Virus record (IMG/VR): IMGVR_UViG_3300030392_002189
Coordinates: 1-29,004 of that record
Length of the DNA stretch: 29,004 nucleotides
Source of the DNA: a virus
Taxonomy: Duplodnaviria; Caudoviricetes
Reading direction: 5' to 3' (one strand)
The position numbers and the translations under genes are program-made. A model generated the notes under the pieces. The model worked only from the letters and a program-made list of their open reading frames with translations, made no database searches and was not told the origin of the DNA. Of this stretch, positions 9,041 to 26,404 are shown one piece after another; the first letter of the stretch is position 1; each line of letters starts with the position of its first letter.

Positions 9041-9556
9041 TTATAATTTTAAGTTATTAATTCTTTCTGTATAAGTAGTTTTACCGTTTAAAATCATCCA
9101 TACCCAACCTTGGGTACAATTTAATTCTTTAGCAATTTGTCTATAAAACAAACCTTCTTTTCTTAATTTAAACATTTTAACTATTTGCTCTTCATCGAAA
9201 CCACATTTAGTTTCAGCCATTTTAGAAATTATTTTCTTTCTGGCTTTTTTTGGTATATCGTGATAATTATCAACATAACTTCCCAAAACAATGTTATCAG
9301 CTTTATTATTTAATTTATCACCATCTAAATGTCTTACAACTTGTAAGTTATAAATAGATTTACCAAATAAACAAAACGCTTGTAAGCGGTGAACAGCTAC
9401 ATTTTTAAATGTTTTTTTAACTCTTGAACCAGTACCAAAGATTAAATAACCTTCACTGTTTTTTGTAGTAATAACTTTTTCGTTGTTTGAATTATAAACA
9501 ACACCAGTTTTATCAACTCTATAACCTCTTTTATATGCAATTTCTTCGTTTCTCAT
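9041..9556 (-). CDS. HNH homing-type endonuclease with C-terminal HTH
   Basis: VHRLQA...VVRHLDGDKLNNKADN motif; YRQIAKELNCTQGWV HTH. Confidence 0.85.
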   Translation of the reverse strand: MRNEEIAYKRGYRVDKTGVVYNSNNEKVITTKNSEGYLIFGTGSRVKKTFKNVAVHRLQAFCLFGKSIYNLQVVRHLDGDKLNNKADNIVLGSYVDNYHDIPKKARKKIISKMAETKCGFDEEQIVKMFKLRKEGLFYRQIAKELNCTQGWVWMILNGKTTYTERINNLKL

Positions 9557-16484: not shown

Positions 16485-16639
16485 TGTTTATATTTAATTT
16501 TATTATAAAAATCGTTTCTTTCAGACCTAGTCCCAAAAAACTTAACAGATTTCCATCCGTACCATTTTTTAACTTGTATATAATAACTAACTATACCACT
16601 AGACATTCTTACTTTTTCCGTTTTTCTAAATGCAGTCAT
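16478..16639 (-). CDS. 53-aa hypothetical protein (missing from the ORF track)
   Basis: Hand translation MTAFRKTEKVRMSSGIVSYYIQVKKWYGWKSVKFFG...; starts 2 nt after the upstream stop. Confidence 0.6.
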   Translation of the reverse strand: MTAFRKTEKVRMSSGIVSYYIQVKKWYGWKSVKFFGTRSERNDFYNKIKYKQS

Positions 16640-16641
16640 AA

Positions 16642-16836
16642 TTAGTTATTTGAAAGTTTTTTAATATCAATTATCACCCACTTTACACCCACGATTAAAA
16701 TAGCTGCAATAAACATACATACAAGGGCGTAACGCACCCAATTGCTGTAAATTAGCTCTAAATCTAACAGAAAGGAAGCTGAAAACGCCAATAAAAGCGT
16801 AATTATAAAGCGGAATATGATGTAAAAAAGGTTCAT
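16642..16836 (-). CDS. Small two-TM membrane protein
   Basis: Two hydrophobic helices; ATGA overlap with the upstream gene. Confidence 0.65.
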   Translation of the reverse strand: MNLFYIIFRFIITLLLAFSASFLLDLELIYSNWVRYALVCMFIAAILIVGVKWVIIDIKKLSNN

Positions 16837-17081
16837 TTATTTCTTGATTTTAGGTATTTTTTTCCGTCCCGGTGCATTATCACCCTAAAGCTTCCGTAGT
16901 TTGAGTATTTTTCTTCACCAAACACTTCTAAATGTATTTCGTTTAAGTAGTTAAAACAGTCTTTTTGCATTTTAAATTTAGGTAAATACTCGTAATAAGT
17001 GGCGAAAAAATCGGCAGCGGAGCGTAATTTAATGGCTATTTCTACTTTTTGGGCGTGTGTTAACTTCTGTACCGGAATCAT
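16833..17081 (-). CDS. Hypothetical phage protein, possibly a late-gene regulator
   Basis: FGEEKYSNYGSFR motif; abuts the recombinase stop; function is inference only. Confidence 0.55.
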   Translation of the reverse strand: MIPVQKLTHAQKVEIAIKLRSAADFFATYYEYLPKFKMQKDCFNYLNEIHLEVFGEEKYSNYGSFRVIMHRDGKKYLKSRNK

Positions 17082-17927
17082 TTATGCGGCGGTTTCAATT
17101 TTATGTTTTAAAAATCTATCTGCAGTGGTGATCTGGTCCTGCAACATTGTAGTGGTGAGATGCAGGTAACGTTCGGTTGTTTTTATGCTGTTGTGGCCTA
17201 AAAACTGTTTTATAAATTTAATATCTACCCCGTTTGCCAGTAAGTGCGTTGCACGGCTGTGGCGTAAGCTATGCGGAGTGATATTTTTACTTATACCTTG
17301 TAAATGTACTGCTTTTTTTACTACTTTTCTAATGGATTTTACACTGTATTTCGTGTTTTTTATGTAACTATTAAACAGGTAGGTTTTCGGTTTGTATTTT
17401 TTGTAATACGCACGTAGCAGGTCCATTGTTTCTTCTGGTAAGGGTATTACCCTATCTTTGGCACCTTTCGCATTTTTAATATGAACGGTGTTGTTTTTTC
17501 CGTTTATATCAAAAATTTTTAAATTTACTACTTCGGAAATTCGCATACCACCGTAATACAGCAAATGAAGTATGGACCGGTGTTTTATATTTAATAATCC
17601 TGCTATTACGTGATGTGCTTCTACTTCACTTAATATCACCGGAAGCTTACTTTGCTTTTTTATTTTTGGTAGGCAGGTTAGTATCTTCGGTTTCAGGATT
17701 ATCTTTCTATAGAAATGTTTAAACACACCTTGGGTTTGCTTTCGGTGGCTTACACTGTTTTTAGTTAGCGCAAAGTCTATTAAATCTTGCGTAGTAGCAA
17801 AATACGGATCGGGCACAAAGTTTAAATAGTCTTTTAATATTTTGCTGTAACTTCTAATGGTCCGCGGTGACATTCCAGCTAACTGAAGGTACTTTTTAAA
17901 CTCGTCTATTAAGTGTTGATTTTTCAT
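17082..17927 (-). CDS. Tyrosine recombinase, integron-integrase-like, lacking the IntI-specific insertion
   Basis: SAM-like N-terminus (SPRTIRSY), LPVILS; complete catalytic set GMRISE, KGAKDR, HSLRH, LGH, TTERY. Confidence 0.92.
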   Translation of the reverse strand: MKNQHLIDEFKKYLQLAGMSPRTIRSYSKILKDYLNFVPDPYFATTQDLIDFALTKNSVSHRKQTQGVFKHFYRKIILKPKILTCLPKIKKQSKLPVILSEVEAHHVIAGLLNIKHRSILHLLYYGGMRISEVVNLKIFDINGKNNTVHIKNAKGAKDRVIPLPEETMDLLRAYYKKYKPKTYLFNSYIKNTKYSVKSIRKVVKKAVHLQGISKNITPHSLRHSRATHLLANGVDIKFIKQFLGHNSIKTTERYLHLTTTMLQDQITTADRFLKHKIETAA

Positions 17928-17984
17928 AATTATTTATTTTAGTTAATTAATACTTGCAGGTATTATAAGGGTTACAAAGGAAGG

Positions 17985-18008
17985 TGGTGATATACTTATG
18001 TTAGCGGT
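17985..18008 (+). other. attI-like site, crossover G|TT at 18000/18001
   Basis: GATATACTTATG|TTAGCGGT, ~70 bp upstream of the recombinase start; no partner hairpin arm; GTTAGCGGT complements ACCGCTAAC at 18690. Confidence 0.75.
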
Positions 18009-18028
18009 CAGGCAAGAAGACGACACCG

Positions 18029-18676
18029 ATGATAAGAACATTTTTAATAATGGGAATAATATCAACAATTTTAAACTTGTTCGGCTGTTCGGGACGGACA
18101 AAGAATAATGACAGTACAAAAACAAATGATATGGACGACCAGATTGCCCAATCAATAGAAGCATTTAAAAACAGACCAATTCACGAAGAATTGACCAAAG
18201 AAATAATTGAATCTACTTCTGACGATGAGTTATTGCAAGTTGTTTTTGACAACCTCACCACGAAACTGCCAGATAACTACGAAAAAGAATATGAAACCGT
18301 AATGACTTGGAATAAGTCAAGACAAGCAATCTATTTGATTTGGCTGTTGGAAGCAGAAGTAAATAACGGTGGCTACAATCAATTCTACTTCAATTCAAGT
18401 GGACAGTTTTACAATGAAATACCAGCAGCATTAAAACTTGTCGGTGCGAACAAATTTGCCAACCTGACTGAAAGAGCGAATAAGATTTATGAAAAAGAAA
18501 ATCAAGAAATTACAAAACATCAAGACGGAACAATTGAAGGATTTAGCAAATCATATGAAGACAATCCATTAAATGACTTGGACGATGAATTCTATGAACT
18601 TTATCAGACTGAGAACCTGCAACAAATTCAGGTAAATTACATTCGACAGAATAAAAATGACTTTGCCGACAAATAA
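18029..18676 (+). CDS. Cassette 1: DUF4375/DMP19-like protein with possible lipoprotein signal
   Basis: EAEVNNGGYNQFYFNSSG motif; LFGC lipobox; the only convincing + strand gene. Confidence 0.8.
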   Translation: MIRTFLIMGIISTILNLFGCSGRTKNNDSTKTNDMDDQIAQSIEAFKNRPIHEELTKEIIESTSDDELLQVVFDNLTTKLPDNYEKEYETVMTWNKSRQAIYLIWLLEAEVNNGGYNQFYFNSSGQFYNEIPAALKLVGANKFANLTERANKIYEKENQEITKHQDGTIEGFSKSYEDNPLNDLDDEFYELYQTENLQQIQVNYIRQNKNDFADK

Positions 18677-18689
18677 AAAAAAAGCCCGA

Positions 18690-18823
18690 ACCGCTAACAT
18701 CGGCTATAGCAAATGCGGGCTGACTGCTTAAAAATGAATATATTACAACTAAATAACTTTCTGTCTGGCGGACAAAGAATCGGTTTCAAAATCCCGCACT
18801 TGCCATAGCCATGGCCGTTAGGC
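18690..18823 (+). repeat. attC-like site 1
   Basis: CGCTAAC atc GGCTATaGCAAaTGCGGG...CCCGCAcTTGCcATAGCC atggcc GTTAGGC. Confidence 0.9.
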
Positions 18824-18827
18824 ACAA

Positions 18828-19001
18828 TTAAAAATAAGTGACCAGTTTTAAATCTTTTGGTTTTACTTGTTCACCAGAGTTGTAGTTTAATTTTTTAGAA
18901 CCTTTTTCTCTTGCTTCATCTTCGTTTTTTGCATAGACCAAAATATATTCAGCAGGGTCATACTTCCACAATTTCAATTTAAATAAATATGCTTTTTTCA
19001 T
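18828..19001 (-). CDS. Cassette 2: 57-aa phage-type protein (missing from the ORF track)
   Basis: MKKAYLFKLKLWKYDPAEYILVYAKNEDEAREKG...; fills the cassette. Confidence 0.7.
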   Translation of the reverse strand: MKKAYLFKLKLWKYDPAEYILVYAKNEDEAREKGSKKLNYNSGEQVKPKDLKLVTYF

Positions 19002-19018
19002 AATCATATTTTTAAAAG

Positions 19019-19303
19019 ATGTCTAACACGGTATATAAATAATAAATAATGCTAATCAACATTGTGCTTCAAACACTCTCCGTCAGTGTGTTTTATGTAT
19101 TGTCGTTTCGTCATATTAGCTATCCATCTATCGTCTCTACACGCAGGATTTTTACAATACTTTTGGTTTCCAGAATCCATTTCAAATTCTTCATTACACC
19201 AAATGCAATTCTTTAAAATACCTGCTTCGCTTATATTTCTGTGTTTGTGTTGAAAATATCCCATATCGCATTATTTACTATTCATATACCATTTACGTTA
19301 TGT
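19019..19303 (+). repeat. attC-like site 2, with a gene in its loop
   Basis: Arms 19030-19052 and 19268-19290 are 21/23 complementary; cores GTCTAAC and GTTATGT. Confidence 0.85.
19052..19264 (-). CDS. 70-aa zinc-finger-like protein inside the attC2 loop
   Basis: CIWC...QKYCKNPAC. Confidence 0.7.
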   Translation of the reverse strand: MGYFQHKHRNISEAGILKNCIWCNEEFEMDSGNQKYCKNPACRDDRWIANMTKRQYIKHTDGECLKHNVD

Positions 19304-19351
19304 TTAATTGCGCCAATCTTTACGCAAGTGTTACGCTTTAGGGCGCAACTA

Positions 19352-19875
19352 AAACATAACAATGCATATAATTAAACACTTACTTCGTGCTTAACCGTAA
19401 GTTCATTACCTGTAATCGCAAAAAACAAGTTTTGTAATTGATGTACATATTTCAATTCGGTATATTCATCAAATATTGGCATCCAAAAACCTGTACTATC
19501 GGCATAGAAATCAACACCGCCAATTTGAAATGTAGCGTCTATTAAACTTTGTGATGTTTTTCTAAAATGGTTAAACGGGTCGTCATACTTGCATTTTCCG
19601 TGTTCAAATATTGGGTCGTCAGTTATAGGCGTTTCCATTCCTAATTTTATTAACCAATCCTCTGTTAAGTAAATTGGCTTATATTCGTTCACACCTAAAG
19701 TTTCGTTATTTTCCTTAACGCTCATTTGCCATAGGTCATAACCAGACATTTCACATAATTTGTCGTCTATATCAATATACAGGTTTCCTATTCTAAAGTT
19801 TTTTGCTTTCATTCTGTTCTATATTTAAGTTTTGTTCTTCTATTACGTGTCAAATCATATGCTAATCCGTTCAGG
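19352..19875 (+). repeat. attC-like site 3, with a gene in its loop
   Basis: ACATAAC aat GCATATaATTaaACAC...GTGTcaAATcATATGC taatcc GTTCAGG. Confidence 0.75.
19372..19812 (-). CDS. Conserved-type Bacteroidota phage protein inside the attC3 loop
   Basis: FRIGN, PIYLTEDWLIKLG and LKYVHQLQNLFFAITGNEL motifs. Confidence 0.8.
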   Translation of the reverse strand: MKAKNFRIGNLYIDIDDKLCEMSGYDLWQMSVKENNETLGVNEYKPIYLTEDWLIKLGMETPITDDPIFEHGKCKYDDPFNHFRKTSQSLIDATFQIGGVDFYADSTGFWMPIFDEYTELKYVHQLQNLFFAITGNELTVKHEVSV

Positions 19876-19899
19876 TTAATTGCCCTACGGGGCGCATTA

Positions 19900-20079
19900 C
19901 TACACATTTAAAACCCACTTTAATACAGAAATTTTACTTTGTATTTCATTTAATTTTAGGGCTTTACCTAAAGAGATAGGCTCTTTTTTCAAAGCTTGGT
20001 TTTTTTTATAAATTAAAATTTCCTCTTCTTTGTTGCGTAAATTCTTAATTTTTGCTTCAATTTGGTCAAATGTCTTCAT
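19900..20079 (-). CDS. Cassette 4: 59-aa coiled-coil phage protein
   Basis: MKTFDQIEAKI...ISVLKWVL; start revised to ATG at 20079. Confidence 0.65.
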   Translation of the reverse strand: MKTFDQIEAKIKNLRNKEEEILIYKKNQALKKEPISLGKALKLNEIQSKISVLKWVLNV

Positions 20080-20195
20080 CCGAATGGTTTTAAATATTCC
20101 CGTAACGCTCAATTAACCTGAACGCTCGGGGTGTAAAATGCCTATATTTAGGCTTGTTAATATTTGGTTTCTGTAGGACTGCCCTACGGTCAACG

Positions 20196-20356
20196 AACCC
20201 GAACAACATATAAAGCGAATACGGCATTTTAAAAGCTGCCGTTCGGCTGGACTATTTAAGAATATCGGGTTAAACTTAAATAAGGTTGTTTACTAATTAA
20301 TGTTTCTTATAAATTCCTTAAAACGCCGCACTCGCTTTATACCCCGAGCGTTAGCA
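20196..20356 (+). repeat. attC-like site 4
   Basis: Arms 20209-20232 and 20318-20341 are 21/24 complementary; cores CCCGAAC and GTTAGCA. Confidence 0.8.
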
Positions 20357-20362
20357 TTAATA

Positions 20363-20698
20363 CTACCTACTCACTTCTATTTTAGCTTCAGGGTATTCTT
20401 TAAGTGCTTCCAAGTATTTAGCAACAAAAGGAACAAAATGCTCGTACATTCCCCATCCATTTGGGCTATTAAATTGCTCAAAGTATTCAGGCCTTGCTTT
20501 TAAGTCAGCTAATCCTTTTTCTACAGTCTCAATAATGTCTTCTGCATACTTCGCACCTATTTCTTCAGGTCGCCAAAGTGCTTTGTAAATTCCAGCTTTA
20601 TCAGCCATTTCGCCCAAATTATGGGTAATGTTTGCCCAGTACAAAGATTCCGTTTCATACTTTGCTGTCGGGTCTTCTAAATAAACATCTAAACTCAT
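20363..20698 (-). CDS. Cassette 5: 111-aa phage hypothetical protein
   Basis: MSLDVYL..NITHNL..NGWG; fills the cassette between GTTAGCATTA and TAATGCTAAC. Confidence 0.8.
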   Translation of the reverse strand: MSLDVYLEDPTAKYETESLYWANITHNLGEMADKAGIYKALWRPEEIGAKYAEDIIETVEKGLADLKARPEYFEQFNSPNGWGMYEHFVPFVAKYLEALKEYPEAKIEVSR

Positions 20699-20732
20699 TT
20701 TGTTCCTTTTTTATCGTTAAATTAATCCGTAC

Positions 20733-20801
20733 TAATGCTAACAACACCTATGCCCCATATTCCGCTATGCTTCATACGGTGCATAGCCAATTCCGTTCGG
20801 C
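20733..20801 (+). repeat. attC-like site 5 (short)
   Basis: TGCTAAC aacac CTATGCcCCaTAT...ATAcGGtGCATAG ccaattcc GTTCGGC. Confidence 0.8.
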
Positions 20802-20870
20802 TGTTCAAATCCATTAAATCAATATATTCTGGTTATTATGTTACCAACATTAAAATAAATACATATCTGC

Positions 20871-20903
20871 AAAACGCCGCACTCGCTTTATACCCCGAGC
20901 GTT
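20871..20903 (+). repeat. Exact 33-bp direct repeat of the attC4 right arm (20320-20352)
   Basis: AAAACGCCGCACTCGCTTTATACCCCGAGCGTT occurs twice. Confidence 0.95.
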
Positions 20904-21043
20904 CACAGGCATAACCTCAACAAGGGCAAGTGCTAATTCGTTCCACTCTGACCACTTGCCCTTGCATCGGATACGTGTTGTGGTTATCGTGCCTCAAACA
21001 CACTACAACACTAATGCCTGTGAACGTATGGGGAGTATTCGAT

Positions 21044-21448
21044 TTAAAAAGCCCTTGCGGTTCGTTCCACTTCACCGTCTTTAAAATTTGGATTATCGTG
21101 TATATTACCTATAATTTTACTCCTATCTGAATTTGTAACTAAACTCACTACATAACCAGTATCAATATTTTTTTGCTGAAAAACTCCATTACTAAAACAA
21201 ACTTCTACTAATCTATTTGTTTGAGTTTCCATAATGTCGCCTTCGTAAATTTCATTTCCATTTTTGTCTTTTAATCCAGTCCATTCATCACAAGAAACTA
21301 CATCCCACCTTTCATCTATTGAAAAACGGTACAATCCGTTTGTTTTATCATTTAAAGAGATATAAAAAGTATCTATATCACCTTCTTTGTAATTCCCCCA
21401 ATCATCAGAAACTAGTTTTAATCTGTATCTAAATTTAATTTCTCTCAT
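21044..21448 (-). CDS. YopX-family protein within the array
   Basis: MREIKFR, TGLKDKNGNEIYEGDI and IIGNIHDNP motifs. Confidence 0.92.
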   Translation of the reverse strand: MREIKFRYRLKLVSDDWGNYKEGDIDTFYISLNDKTNGLYRFSIDERWDVVSCDEWTGLKDKNGNEIYEGDIMETQTNRLVEVCFSNGVFQQKNIDTGYVVSLVTNSDRSKIIGNIHDNPNFKDGEVERTARAF

Positions 21449-21492
21449 AATTCAATGTTTAAGTTATTGTTTACTTGTTTTGTTTCGGCAAC

Positions 21493-21631
21493 GCCTGTGA
21501 ACACCGAGTATATTACATTGCCTAACGGCAGGGCTTTTTAAATCGTTCATTGCCTTACGTGTTCCCAAACCATTCCTTGCAGTCATAGTTTTACACACAC
21601 GGCAACGAAACATACTCCCCATACGTTCTAA
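21493..21631 (+). repeat. attC-like site 6
   Basis: TGTGAAC acc GAGTATaTTaCaTTGCC...GGCAAcGaAAcATACTC cccatac GTTCTAA. Confidence 0.8.
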
Positions 21632-21659
21632 CCAATTTAAAAACACGGTTAGAACATAA

Positions 21660-23444
21660 TCACGCATAAAACTCTGCGTCCGGGTTGTTGTAAACGCTTT
21701 CGCTGGTTTCGGGTTCTTCGGTGTTTAGTACGCCAGCTTCAGCCATTACTAATGTTATTAATGGATCTATTCTTTTTGTACTGTGTTTTTTACTTAATCT
21801 TACATTTTCATTAGGGTCTATATACGTTCCGCAACCGGTTAAACACCATTGTAATAATGGATTTCCGCCGTGTCGGAGTTTTCCGGATAATGCTAATTTT
21901 TCAATTTCTTTTGTTGGTGTTGAAAAATAGGTGGTGGTCTGCGCAAATTGTAACATTTCTAACCCTGATTCTATTAAATTTGTTACTAGTTGTGTGCTGT
22001 TATACCTATCAAAAAGAAACGCTAAACACTTCAATAGGAAATAATATTTTTTTGAATAATCTTCCATTACATTATAATCCACCACATTTCCTTCAGTAGC
22101 TATTAACAATCTTAAATCGTTGATTAAATGTGAAAAATCTGCTTCTAAATGTTTAGGAACCTCTACATAATCAATCATATTGGTTTCACTCCAGTGCCTA
22201 TAAGGAACTCTATCTTCTTTTGAACGTTTATCAATGGTGTCTTTAGGGCAAAAAACTAAAACCAAAAAATCTTGAATACCTTCTTCATCTGGATTGCTTA
22301 AAAATCCTGTACAGGTTAAATCGGTAGTGGTACTTAAATCTATAGCGCCGTAACAGCCGTATTTTATAAAATTTTCAATTTTTACTTTATCACTGTTTTG
22401 CATCCACACTTCATTTTCAATCCAAGGGTCTTGTTCATCAACCCACATATTAAGGTTTTTGGTTTTGAAAATTCTCTTTTTTGAAGGCTGAAGCACACAC
22501 TTATGATAATCTTTTTTCATTCGTTCCATTGTAAGGCCTTGCCCTAAAAGCGGGTTACACTTATACCAATTTTCGGGATCTTGCCAATCATCGCCATCAT
22601 CCATTTCGTGAATCATGATCCATAGGGTATCATCTTCTTCATTTGTCCCCAACAAAACACCTTTACACACTTCTTCATAATTATAGCACACCGATTGTAT
22701 ATTGGTTCCGGCTGTGGTGATATGATAGGTTATGGGCTGGGTGCGTAATACTGAAGAAGTTTCTAAATTTTCCTTTACACCATCGTCTTTATGGGCGTGG
22801 TATTCATCTATTATTGAAACGTGACTGTTTATACCATCTTGCGTTTTACTATCACCACCCAAAGGCATCATTTTACTACCGTTGCCAGCAAAACGAATTT
22901 CCTTTAACCGAGTACTGAAACCTATTTGCTTTAACCGTGGGTTTGCCAACGGGCTTTCAATAAAGTTTTTTGCGGCCGTCCAACATATTTTCGCTTGATC
23001 TTCTTTCGTGGCACCTACATAAATTTCAGCTTCGTATTCATCATCATCGGCCATAACGTAAAGAGAAAGCCCTGCCATCTCTGCAGATTTACCGTTTTTC
23101 TTTGCTCGCTTATCGTAAATTGTATTTATACGACGATGGCCAGTGGTGGTGCTTTTCCACCCAAAAAGATTGTATTGTGTAAACTGTTGAAATGGTGCTA
23201 AATTAAATGGTGTTCCCGCAATACCCGCGCCCTTTGTATGATTAATAAACATTGGGAAGAAATTAATTACACGCATCCCTGCTTCGTGGTCCAGGTAATA
23301 CCCATCTTCTTCGGCGGTGTCTAACCATCTAAAAAACCGCTCAACCGCCAACTTAATATACTTTCCGGTTACAATTTTACCGGAACGTACATCGTTTGCA
23401 TACTGAAACGGAACGGATTGAAGCATTTCTTTTGTTGGTTTCAT
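21660..23444 (-). CDS. terL: Terminase large subunit
   Basis: Walker A AKKNGKS, IIDEYH, ITTAG, GAIDLS and RIDP motifs. Confidence 0.97.
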   Translation of the reverse strand: MKPTKEMLQSVPFQYANDVRSGKIVTGKYIKLAVERFFRWLDTAEEDGYYLDHEAGMRVINFFPMFINHTKGAGIAGTPFNLAPFQQFTQYNLFGWKSTTTGHRRINTIYDKRAKKNGKSAEMAGLSLYVMADDDEYEAEIYVGATKEDQAKICWTAAKNFIESPLANPRLKQIGFSTRLKEIRFAGNGSKMMPLGGDSKTQDGINSHVSIIDEYHAHKDDGVKENLETSSVLRTQPITYHITTAGTNIQSVCYNYEEVCKGVLLGTNEEDDTLWIMIHEMDDGDDWQDPENWYKCNPLLGQGLTMERMKKDYHKCVLQPSKKRIFKTKNLNMWVDEQDPWIENEVWMQNSDKVKIENFIKYGCYGAIDLSTTTDLTCTGFLSNPDEEGIQDFLVLVFCPKDTIDKRSKEDRVPYRHWSETNMIDYVEVPKHLEADFSHLINDLRLLIATEGNVVDYNVMEDYSKKYYFLLKCLAFLFDRYNSTQLVTNLIESGLEMLQFAQTTTYFSTPTKEIEKLALSGKLRHGGNPLLQWCLTGCGTYIDPNENVRLSKKHSTKRIDPLITLVMAEAGVLNTEEPETSESVYNNPDAEFYA

Positions 23445-24006: not shown

Positions 24007-24327
24007 TTATTTACTCCTAGCTGACTCTTCACCACTCTTTTTCGCGTGGCATTTTTTACAACCACTCTGTAATTCATTCCAATCATAAGGATCTCTACCC
24101 TGTTCTAATATAATTTGTAACTGTTCTTTATGATCACAAACATCTGCTGGGCCAACAATACCTAAATCTTTACACTCTAATTCACAAGTTTTATTTACAC
24201 TTCTATAAGCTAAACTTGTTCTCCTCCATTTTGAGGAATTATAAAAATCATAATTATCAACTAAACGTTGATGCTTTTCACGTTTAGGGACCCAATTAGG
24301 ACGTAATTTTTTACTTTGTTTAGGCAT
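24007..24327 (-). CDS. Packaging-associated HNH nuclease (HK97 gp74-like)
   Basis: FYNSSKWRR, VCDH and LQSGCKKCHAKKS motifs; next to terS. Confidence 0.88.
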   Translation of the reverse strand: MPKQSKKLRPNWVPKREKHQRLVDNYDFYNSSKWRRTSLAYRSVNKTCELECKDLGIVGPADVCDHKEQLQIILEQGRDPYDWNELQSGCKKCHAKKSGEESARSK

Positions 24328-25736: not shown

Positions 25737-26404
25737 CAGCTGTATTTTATACGTTTTCTACTTGGGTGCGCTTCATTTGCTTCATTCAGTTTAACCACAC
25801 GCCCCTTATCCTTACCAATGTTATAAATCCAGTTGCCGGCATACTTTTCAAGGCGGGCAAATAAAACACGATCTTTGAACGGCAGTTCCTCGATGTCTAC
25901 AGTAGTATCAAAATCTTTAAGAAATTTATTCCATTCAGGAATTTGTTTTTTATGCTTCATTTCAAAGCTTTCCCATTTACTAGGATAATTAGACATTAAA
26001 AAAAAGAGCGCGCCTTCTCTCTCTTGTATTTCTATATGTATATCTATATTCCTATTATTTGGTTGTCGAGATTCCGAAGGGGTCAGTCGAGATTCCGAAG
26101 GGGTCAGTCGAGATTCCGAAGGGGGGTTCGAGATTCCGAAGGGGGTAATTAATACCATTCTTCGTAAATTATCTTCTTCATAAAACGTTCTTAAAAATCC
26201 CTTTTCAGACAATGAAGAAATAATCTCACTACAACGGTTTTTACTTAGTTTAAACAGCTCGGCAAAGTGTCTGTTTTTAGCAAAACAACCAGCGCCCTGA
26301 TCTAAACTATCTATTTCTGAAAGGAATACTTTTTCAGTAATAGTAAGCCCTTCAAAAAACCATATCTCTTTCGGGATCCATATACCTTTAAAATCTCTTT
26401 GCAT
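25736..26404 (-). CDS. Phage replication initiator (N-terminal HTH)
   Basis: FKGIWIP...GCFAKNRHFAE HTH; internal iterons; next to DnaB. Confidence 0.85.
   Translation of the reverse strand: MQRDFKGIWIPKEIWFFEGLTITEKVFLSEIDSLDQGAGCFAKNRHFAELFKLSKNRCSEIISSLSEKGFLRTFYEEDNLRRMVLITPFGISNPPSESRLTPSESRLTPSESRQPNNRNIDIHIEIQEREGALFFLMSNYPSKWESFEMKHKKQIPEWNKFLKDFDTTVDIEELPFKDRVLFARLEKYAGNWIYNIGKDKGRVVKLNEANEAHPSRKRIKYS
26066..26144. repeat. Four iterons, probable replication origin
   Basis: TCGAGATTCCGAAGGGG at 26066, 26087, 26108 and 26128, beside an AT-rich tract. Confidence 0.85.

Follow-up and report, generated by a model that had tools for sequence, protein, structure and literature searches.

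Does the loop of an attC-like hairpin that encloses a complete gene act as a place for cargo, and could such a loop indicate how new cassettes arise? The question is raised by the 29,004-nucleotide stretch of DNA analysed here (the window), a complete 29-kb viral contig of a flavobacterial phage whose minus strand bears tail, head, portal and terminase genes. A recombinase gene (17082-17927) is located between the portal and terminase genes and is followed by a row of small genes with imperfect inverted repeats between them, one of which, site 2, holds a gene between its arms. We consider it somewhat probable that site 2 belongs to a family of attC-like hairpins of Bacteroidota that form the joints of a two-slot array, in which recombination may occur at either core and the modules assort independently.

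Organization of the array

The array and its recombinase comprise the following features, those of site 2 being given in the next section.

17082 to 17927, minus strand: tyrosine recombinase, 281 aa, XerA/IntI-like (PF00589, 136 bits, cut-off 27)
17981 to 18002, plus strand: attI-like site, predicted crossover G|TT at 18000/18001
18029 to 18676, plus strand: cassette 1 gene, DMP19-like, 215 aa, in conventional orientation (PF14300, E 9e-26)
18691 to 18824, plus strand: site 1, attC-like, with a non-coding loop (model R1, 54.8 bits, for a site in its own training set)
18817 to 19027, plus strand: spacer preceding site 2 (GTT to AAC), a conventional cargo slot
18828 to 19007, minus strand: 59-aa ORF within that spacer
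19297 to 19360, plus strand: spacer without a gene, with a small hairpin
19354 to 19875, plus strand: site 3, the second long site, read by eye, with weaker arms at 19363-19379 and 19847-19862
19372 to 19812, minus strand: site 3 loop gene, 146 aa (phrog_10066, E 1.6e-18)
19900 to 20112, minus strand: 70-aa ORF in the spacer 19869-20123
20197 to 20357, plus strand: site 4, with a non-coding loop (model R1, 35.8 bits)
20363 to 20698, minus strand: 111-aa ORF in the spacer 20350-20742 (phrog_4019, E 2e-14)
20735 to 20802, plus strand: site 5, short (model R1, 20 bits, E 0.08)
21495 to 21632, plus strand: distal site (model R1, 34 bits), downstream of the YopX gene at 21044-21448

This arrangement can be read as an alternation of spacers, which run from GTT to AAC and would be the usual cargo slot, with hairpins, which run from AAC to GTT and whose loop would be a second one. 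Model R1, a covariance model trained on 27 short sites with window site 1 among them, was used in place of a first strict site detector that found just 2 sites in the window. It matches five plus-strand places in the window, site 2 included (21 bits, E 0.05), and leaves site 3 unmatched. The arms of site 3 pair in the bottom-strand fold, and site 1 folds with its cores paired. A comparison of 16500-22000 with Rfam returned nothing near the gathering score, and a search for relatives of the 59-aa spacer ORF gave one spurious locus and nothing useful.

A GTT-containing motif inside site 4 (20241-20247) reappears at the right-hand end of site 5 (20795-20801), and at 20871-20903 stands an exact 33-nt copy of the right arm of site 4 that has no left arm; taken together (20197-20903), the shared motif and the lone arm copy resemble integration at a secondary core in the loop. 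Two stretches, 20115-20140 and 21016-21045, each show the AAC end of a spacer with a long-spacer-type arm behind it; these may be inverted sites, which would suit occasional use of the top strand. Elsewhere in the window, an HNH endonuclease gene lies in the tail region (9041-9556), a small HNH gene adjoins the terminase gene (24007-24327), and four 21-nt iteron-like repeats stand inside a putative replication initiator gene (26065-26147).

Structure of site 2

Site 2 is composed of two cores, two arms and a loop gene.

19021 to 19027, plus strand: left core GTCTAAC, R''-like, predicted second crossover AA|C at 19026/19027
19030 to 19052, plus strand: left arm
19052 to 19264, minus strand: loop gene, 70 aa, with the motif C-x2-C-x13-C-x4-C
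19268 to 19290, plus strand: right arm
19297 to 19303, plus strand: right core GTTATGT, R'-like, predicted crossover G|TT at 19297/19298

The arms are complementary at 21 of 23 positions, exactly as a preliminary description of this DNA had it. Nowhere else in the 29-kb window do two 23-nt stretches within 600 nt of each other pair with two or fewer mismatches, and such a pair was absent from all 20 dinucleotide shuffles of it. The left core fits RYYYAAC fully, and the right core has the GTT of GTTRRRY with a T at one of the purine positions. Two unpaired bases separate core and stem on the left and six on the right. From AAC to GTT the site spans 275 nt, outside the 57-141 bp reported for canonical attC sites (PMC5371416), a range that agrees with the limit of about 140 bp quoted beforehand. 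Its 23-bp stem is ungapped, with none of the two or three extrahelical bases that the definition of attC given in PMC2727003 places on the R''-L'' arm. Site 2 is attC-like but not a canonical attC, as it has no extrahelical bases and its neighbouring recombinase lacks the IntI insertion.

The bottom strand of site 2 folds at -29.2 kcal/mol versus -23.0 kcal/mol for the top strand, and under DNA parameters the recombinogenic fold, with stem and cores paired, has a probability of 0.48 on the bottom strand versus 0.07 on the top. A probability above 0.1 is termed very high in PMC5371416, where the constraint set differs from the one used here. Both arm mismatches are A-C on the top strand and so become G-T wobbles on the bottom strand.

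Since the bottom strand is the mRNA strand of the loop gene, this wobble pattern fits RNA pairing too. It is conceivable, and in our view improbable, that the arms act in RNA, pairing around the gene in its mRNA to control translation or processing, with modules swapped by homology at such conserved borders and with the recombinase as the phage's lysogeny integrase that has its own attP. The more stable strand is indeed the coding strand of the loop gene, and the ATG lies 3 nt from the stem. Yet site 1 has the same strand bias with the cassette 1 gene on the other strand, and cassette 1 is found joined exactly at G|TT to a site without its partner arm. Moreover, in an alignment of 27 short sites every one of the 27 has the AAC and GTT cores, although the sites were selected for having them.

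A search of IMG/VR for the exact right arm of site 2 gave one occurrence, on the same contig as locus L001, and a DNA search of GenBank phages gave two short, chance-level matches only.

The loop gene

The gene occupies the loop as had been described: its TAG overlaps the left arm by that arm's final base (19052), and 3 nt (19265-19267) separate its ATG from the right arm. Six of six candidate relatives of the protein, of 62-70 aa, were upheld, and the cysteines C20, C23, C37 and C42 are kept in every one of the 8 sequences aligned. The preliminary description had named conservation of the ORF as a check, and the dN/dS values of 0.03-0.08 (0.031 against L010, 0.083 against L081 and 0.06 against L082) answer it; judged by these comparisons, the ORF is real and under purifying selection. 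It had also been called a zinc-finger ORF, a label for which the four cysteines are the basis, and metal binding is a prediction from that motif. The protein has no family above cut-off in Pfam and NCBIfam, and a fold search with a model of pLDDT 66 as the query gave no PDB match at E<=0.001. Residues 13-50 match phrog_1271 (E 1.4e-4), and the neighbours in the Atlas are phage clusters, one of which has NinG on 14% of its members. The product may be a small metal-binding accessory protein of phages.

Between the window and L010, 16 of 33.7 synonymous sites differ, against 0 of 50 arm bases. That the arms stay unchanged while half of the synonymous sites differ speaks against a dead site, in which a gene landed once in the loop of a hairpin whose arms are now relics. 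A length of 275 nt, about twice that of the longest canonical attC, would be in keeping with such an accident, but L081 carries a paired change in both arms and the layout is common to 16 gene families. Arm conservation together with repeated mobility largely refutes this reading, which we regard as very improbable.

Among the relatives of the loop ORF whose context is known, the most distant (L083, 69%) belongs to an ordinary operon, where it overlaps its neighbour, and has no arms. There (L083:1500-2090) the unwrapped relative overlaps a gene related to the loop gene of window site 3 (26% identity, E 2e-11).

Sites with the same arms and other loops

In IMG/VR, 55 stretches matched a left-arm pattern, and these were pooled with further loci. 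The resulting set is enriched by design, L012-L023 having come from a right-arm pattern and three loci (L081, L082 and L118) having been added by hand; L079, which matches the window without a difference over 3210 nt, and L080, from the same contig as L001, were left uncounted. L002 was rejected as a spurious locus, and L027 was dropped as a likely false match. Among 50 distinct left arms, 31 have the family right arm (89 of 1540 with shuffled downstream sequence). The 19 left-arm matches without a right arm, none of them counted, include three cut by contig ends and several that look like diverged members, and the remainder resemble chance matches.

The 31 two-armed sites are made up of 6 short sites (86-126 nt), 24 gene-filled sites (199-470 nt) that hold 16 gene families, and 1 likely false match. 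A search for the same arms around empty or different loops, as suggested in the preliminary description, thus found both, in 6 short non-coding loops and 15 other gene families. With a script that sought minus-strand ORFs ending near the left arm, such an ORF was found to fill at least 81% of the loop in 24 of 24 gene-filled sites; in 19 of them its stop falls in the range from 4 nt inside the arm end to 0 nt outside it, and in 14 its placement is identical to that in the window. The inner stem halves covary across 20 types, 5.25 of 8 positions pairing with the true partner and 2.83 with swapped ones (0 of 20000 permutations). The bottom strand folds better than the top in 22 of the 24 long sites and reaches a fold probability of 0.1 in 15, the other 9 folding poorly (<0.1). 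The same layout recurs in window site 3 and in gene 35 (DUF551) of Leef_1, a cultured Polaribacter phage.

On these comparisons the gene-in-loop layout is real, recurrent and under selection. The proposal that the loop is a second cargo slot gains support from the conservation of the ORF and from the empty and differently filled loops. Among the loci compared, both slots are shown to occur empty or loaded, and a loaded hairpin sits between different spacers on either side.

One short filler is present in empty spacers and in minimal empty-hairpin loops (L004 left flank, L017:476-530, L020:224-279 and L130:206-260), with an overlapping stop-start on its minus strand. A Bacteroidales contig (L118:700-4600) has a relative of the recombinase and an array with a loop cassette 99% identical to one in L020; the spacer stems of the two differ, and some ORFs of L118 start inside loops and read through a core.

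Mobility and module boundaries

The arms and gene of site 2 recur together in L001, L081 and L082, where the DNA flanking them outside both AAC and GTT is unrelated. Identity with the window begins at the left core, and, as in an integron cassette, the unit has different neighbours at G|TT. In all nine pairs of gene-filled sites that are at least 80% alike (5 gene families, 92 sites compared), the last 9 nt before AAC match at 0-7 of 9 positions and the 60 nt behind GTT at 41-66%. Two of three short-site pairs keep the spacer end (8/9 and 9/9), and in the sole pair with a common loaded spacer the sites behind it differ (62%). The spacer before site 2 has the same ends as those of L031 and L062, which hold other genes and precede an empty site of the 86-nt type, so that both slots are loaded in the window. 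Run X7 contains cassette 1 (18000-18822) behind the right arm of another site, starting at the G of GTT, and run X9 contains the gene-less spacer 19297-19360 joined to other arms at both ends; a pattern search for this spacer gave 0 matches. The loop module seems, from these junctions, to move independently of the spacer ahead of the site, and the flanks suggest crossovers at both cores.

A rather unlikely alternative is that recombination occurs at G|TT only, as in integrons, the unit being a spacer plus a long hairpin. The loop would then remain a cargo slot and not an independent module, and the differing left neighbours would stem from homologous or microhomology exchange in the arm or from compensatory drift of the spacer stem. 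The preference for the bottom strand in 22 of 24 long sites agrees with this, as do the spacer ends retained in the short-site pairs L031/L036 and L038/L061, and the mismatched spacer stem of L081 and the arms of two subtypes in L013 are signs of exchange away from the cores. All arms have 13-20 nt in common, enough for homology-driven exchange, and compensatory drift could yield the three of nine gene-filled pairs that differ at merely 2-4 of the last 9 nt before AAC; both points count against crossovers at either core.

Nevertheless, four of four cassette copies have the same three bases after AAC, and window-type spacers elsewhere precede other bases, which weakly places the break at or left of AACA and not in the shared box. 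Furthermore, 20 of the 31 sites are preceded by a 29-nt empty spacer with a common 11-nt filler, and in 17 of these 20 the 9-bp stem is perfect, so that the spacer itself should seldom be the place of a break. Finally, one 151-nt contig of another run is broken at AA|C (a single case, depth 8.9).

The recombinase and its attI-like site

The recombinase reaches 197 bits against NF040815 (XerA, cut-off 220) and 145 bits, in two stretches, against TIGR02249 (IntI, cut-off 265), and its catalytic motifs are visible in the sequence. It lacks the IntI-specific insertion (I2 helix), with 26 residues there versus 68 in IntI4 (2A3V). The start of its gene is 72 nt from the first GTT, so that, as in an integron, the gene adjoins the array, and the attI-like site with its GTT crossover beside the recombinase is recognised by comparison only: a motif AAGGTG..TATA..GTT lies upstream of the recombinase gene in the window, Leef_1 and L086, and the DNA that follows the motif differs among them. 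These two loci hold its nearest kin (SH-aLRT 98, quick tree), and its relatives are mostly in Bacteroidota. Leef_1 thus combines a loop gene with the nearest recombinase and the shared attI-like motif, and has five strong sites of the same polarity upstream of the recombinase gene.

Among 53 loci of recombinase relatives at 30-50%, 12 have site matches and 41 do not, many with short flanks. Array presence is not clustered on the recombinase tree (quick version; 378 of 500 shuffles as low). For arms that act in RNA, it would be natural that most relatives have no array in the fetched flanks and that the Leef_1 gene is annotated simply "integrase", but the sites read away from the recombinase gene in 11 of the 12 loci with matches, the exception having been in the training set. 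We infer that the window recombinase acts on the sites; it could be a lysogeny integrase.

In the cultured Polaribacter phages Leef_1 (L138, 2239-5990) and Freya_10 (L139, 895-1028 and 3786-3983), sites lie upstream of the annotated integrase. Length differences among Freya phages were considered as array variation and set aside, the gene order upstream of the integrase being the same in two records. The accessible text of PMC8776804 does not contain the word "integron".

A model for two-slot recombination

In integrons, extrahelical bases select the bottom strand and their deletion partly depolarises the site, and the top strand of a Vibrio attC without them recombines at R'' (PMC2727003, in the parts available); the I2 helix is described as acting through contact with attC (PMC4792948). 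Given a stem without extrahelical bases and an enzyme without the insertion, crossovers are predicted at both cores. We propose that the recombinase, like IntI, would cut at G|TT in the folded bottom strand, and that the folded top strand, because its stem has no extrahelical bases, could also be cut at AA|C, the hairpin and its gene moving as a unit of their own. The loop gene would have been captured from an ordinary phage operon and would be expressed from minus-strand phage transcription, not from an integron promoter.

Several observations count against this model. With IntI1, attC x attC excision was reportedly lost when both sites lacked extrahelical bases (PMC2727003), and a site of Polaribacter phage P12002L, which is probably a member of the site 2 family, did not recombine with IntI1 (PMC9892861). 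The poor fold of 9 of 24 long sites and the 41 of 53 recombinase-relative loci without a site match point the same way.

A wider reading, which we offer only tentatively, is that the arrays of Bacteroidota phages consist of freely assorting spacer and hairpin modules worked by an enzyme that lacks the insertion and cuts at either core of hairpins free of extrahelical bases, with operon genes captured into either slot and ending at their stop codon. The arrays would then be a visible record of cassette building, and possibly a primitive state of the integron. The formation of new integron cassettes is described as largely unknown in PMC5371416 and PMC4792948, and the preliminary description had seen in the loop a hint at their genesis. 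What stands of this is a lead, given by one unwrapped relative and the precise position of the stop; filler-like remnants adjoining loaded genes, seen by eye, are a further lead to the entry of genes into the loop. Sequence data contain the site both empty and loaded as well as a relative of the cargo gene that is unwrapped, and the cultured pair of Leef_1 and its host Polaribacter sp. AHE13PA has the layout, making both capture and two-ended recombination directly testable. If the model is true, the I2 helix and extrahelical bases would be dispensable for a cassette array, and tools based on canonical attC length or shape would presumably miss such arrays.

Comparison with known systems

Complete integrons are reported to be almost absent in Bacteroidetes (PMC9024848). 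The literature surveyed (listings and abstracts, with subscription journals mostly uncovered) held no natural genes inside attC loops, nor such a pairing of recombinase and array. The phage attC clusters without an integrase, as in P12002L (PMC9892861), likewise have small genes bounded by hairpins in a Bacteroidota phage, and the P12002L_attC1 oligonucleotide resembles, by eye, the reverse complement of the minimal empty site in L004; unlike the window, that account, as far as it is accessible, describes no loop genes and no cognate recombinase. Integration of CTXphi by XerCD (PMC4792948) similarly uses a folded single strand without extrahelical bases and enzymes without the I2 helix, but involves one phage attachment site and host enzymes, as described there, rather than a gene-swapping array that brings its own recombinase. 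Synthetic attC sites in coding sequence (PMC7439510) indicate that the attC structure tolerates coding sequence; these are, in the available text, engineered sites inside a gene with loops of 3-21 nt, whereas here a natural gene lies inside a site.

The closest likeness is to integrons, both class 1 and the sedentary ones of Vibrio. As in these, a tyrosine recombinase has an attI-like site next to it, along with a polarised series of imperfect hairpins whose cores are AAC and GTT, each window spacer starts and ends with complementary cores, the boundary of cassette 1 is at G|TT, and the bottom strand of the window sites folds better. In contrast to integrons, the left arm of site 2 has no extrahelical bases, and the surplus of unpaired bases (2 versus 6) is on the right arm. 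Site 2 has a length of 275 nt versus 57-141 bp, and its 70-aa gene lies whole and antisense inside the site, the gene being upstream of attC, as in an integron gene cassette, for cassette 1 only. The recombinase is about 40 residues short across the IntI insertion, and both cores appear to be exchange points. With neither extrahelical bases nor the IntI insertion, the system would therefore work like an integron yet fall outside strict membership of that class.
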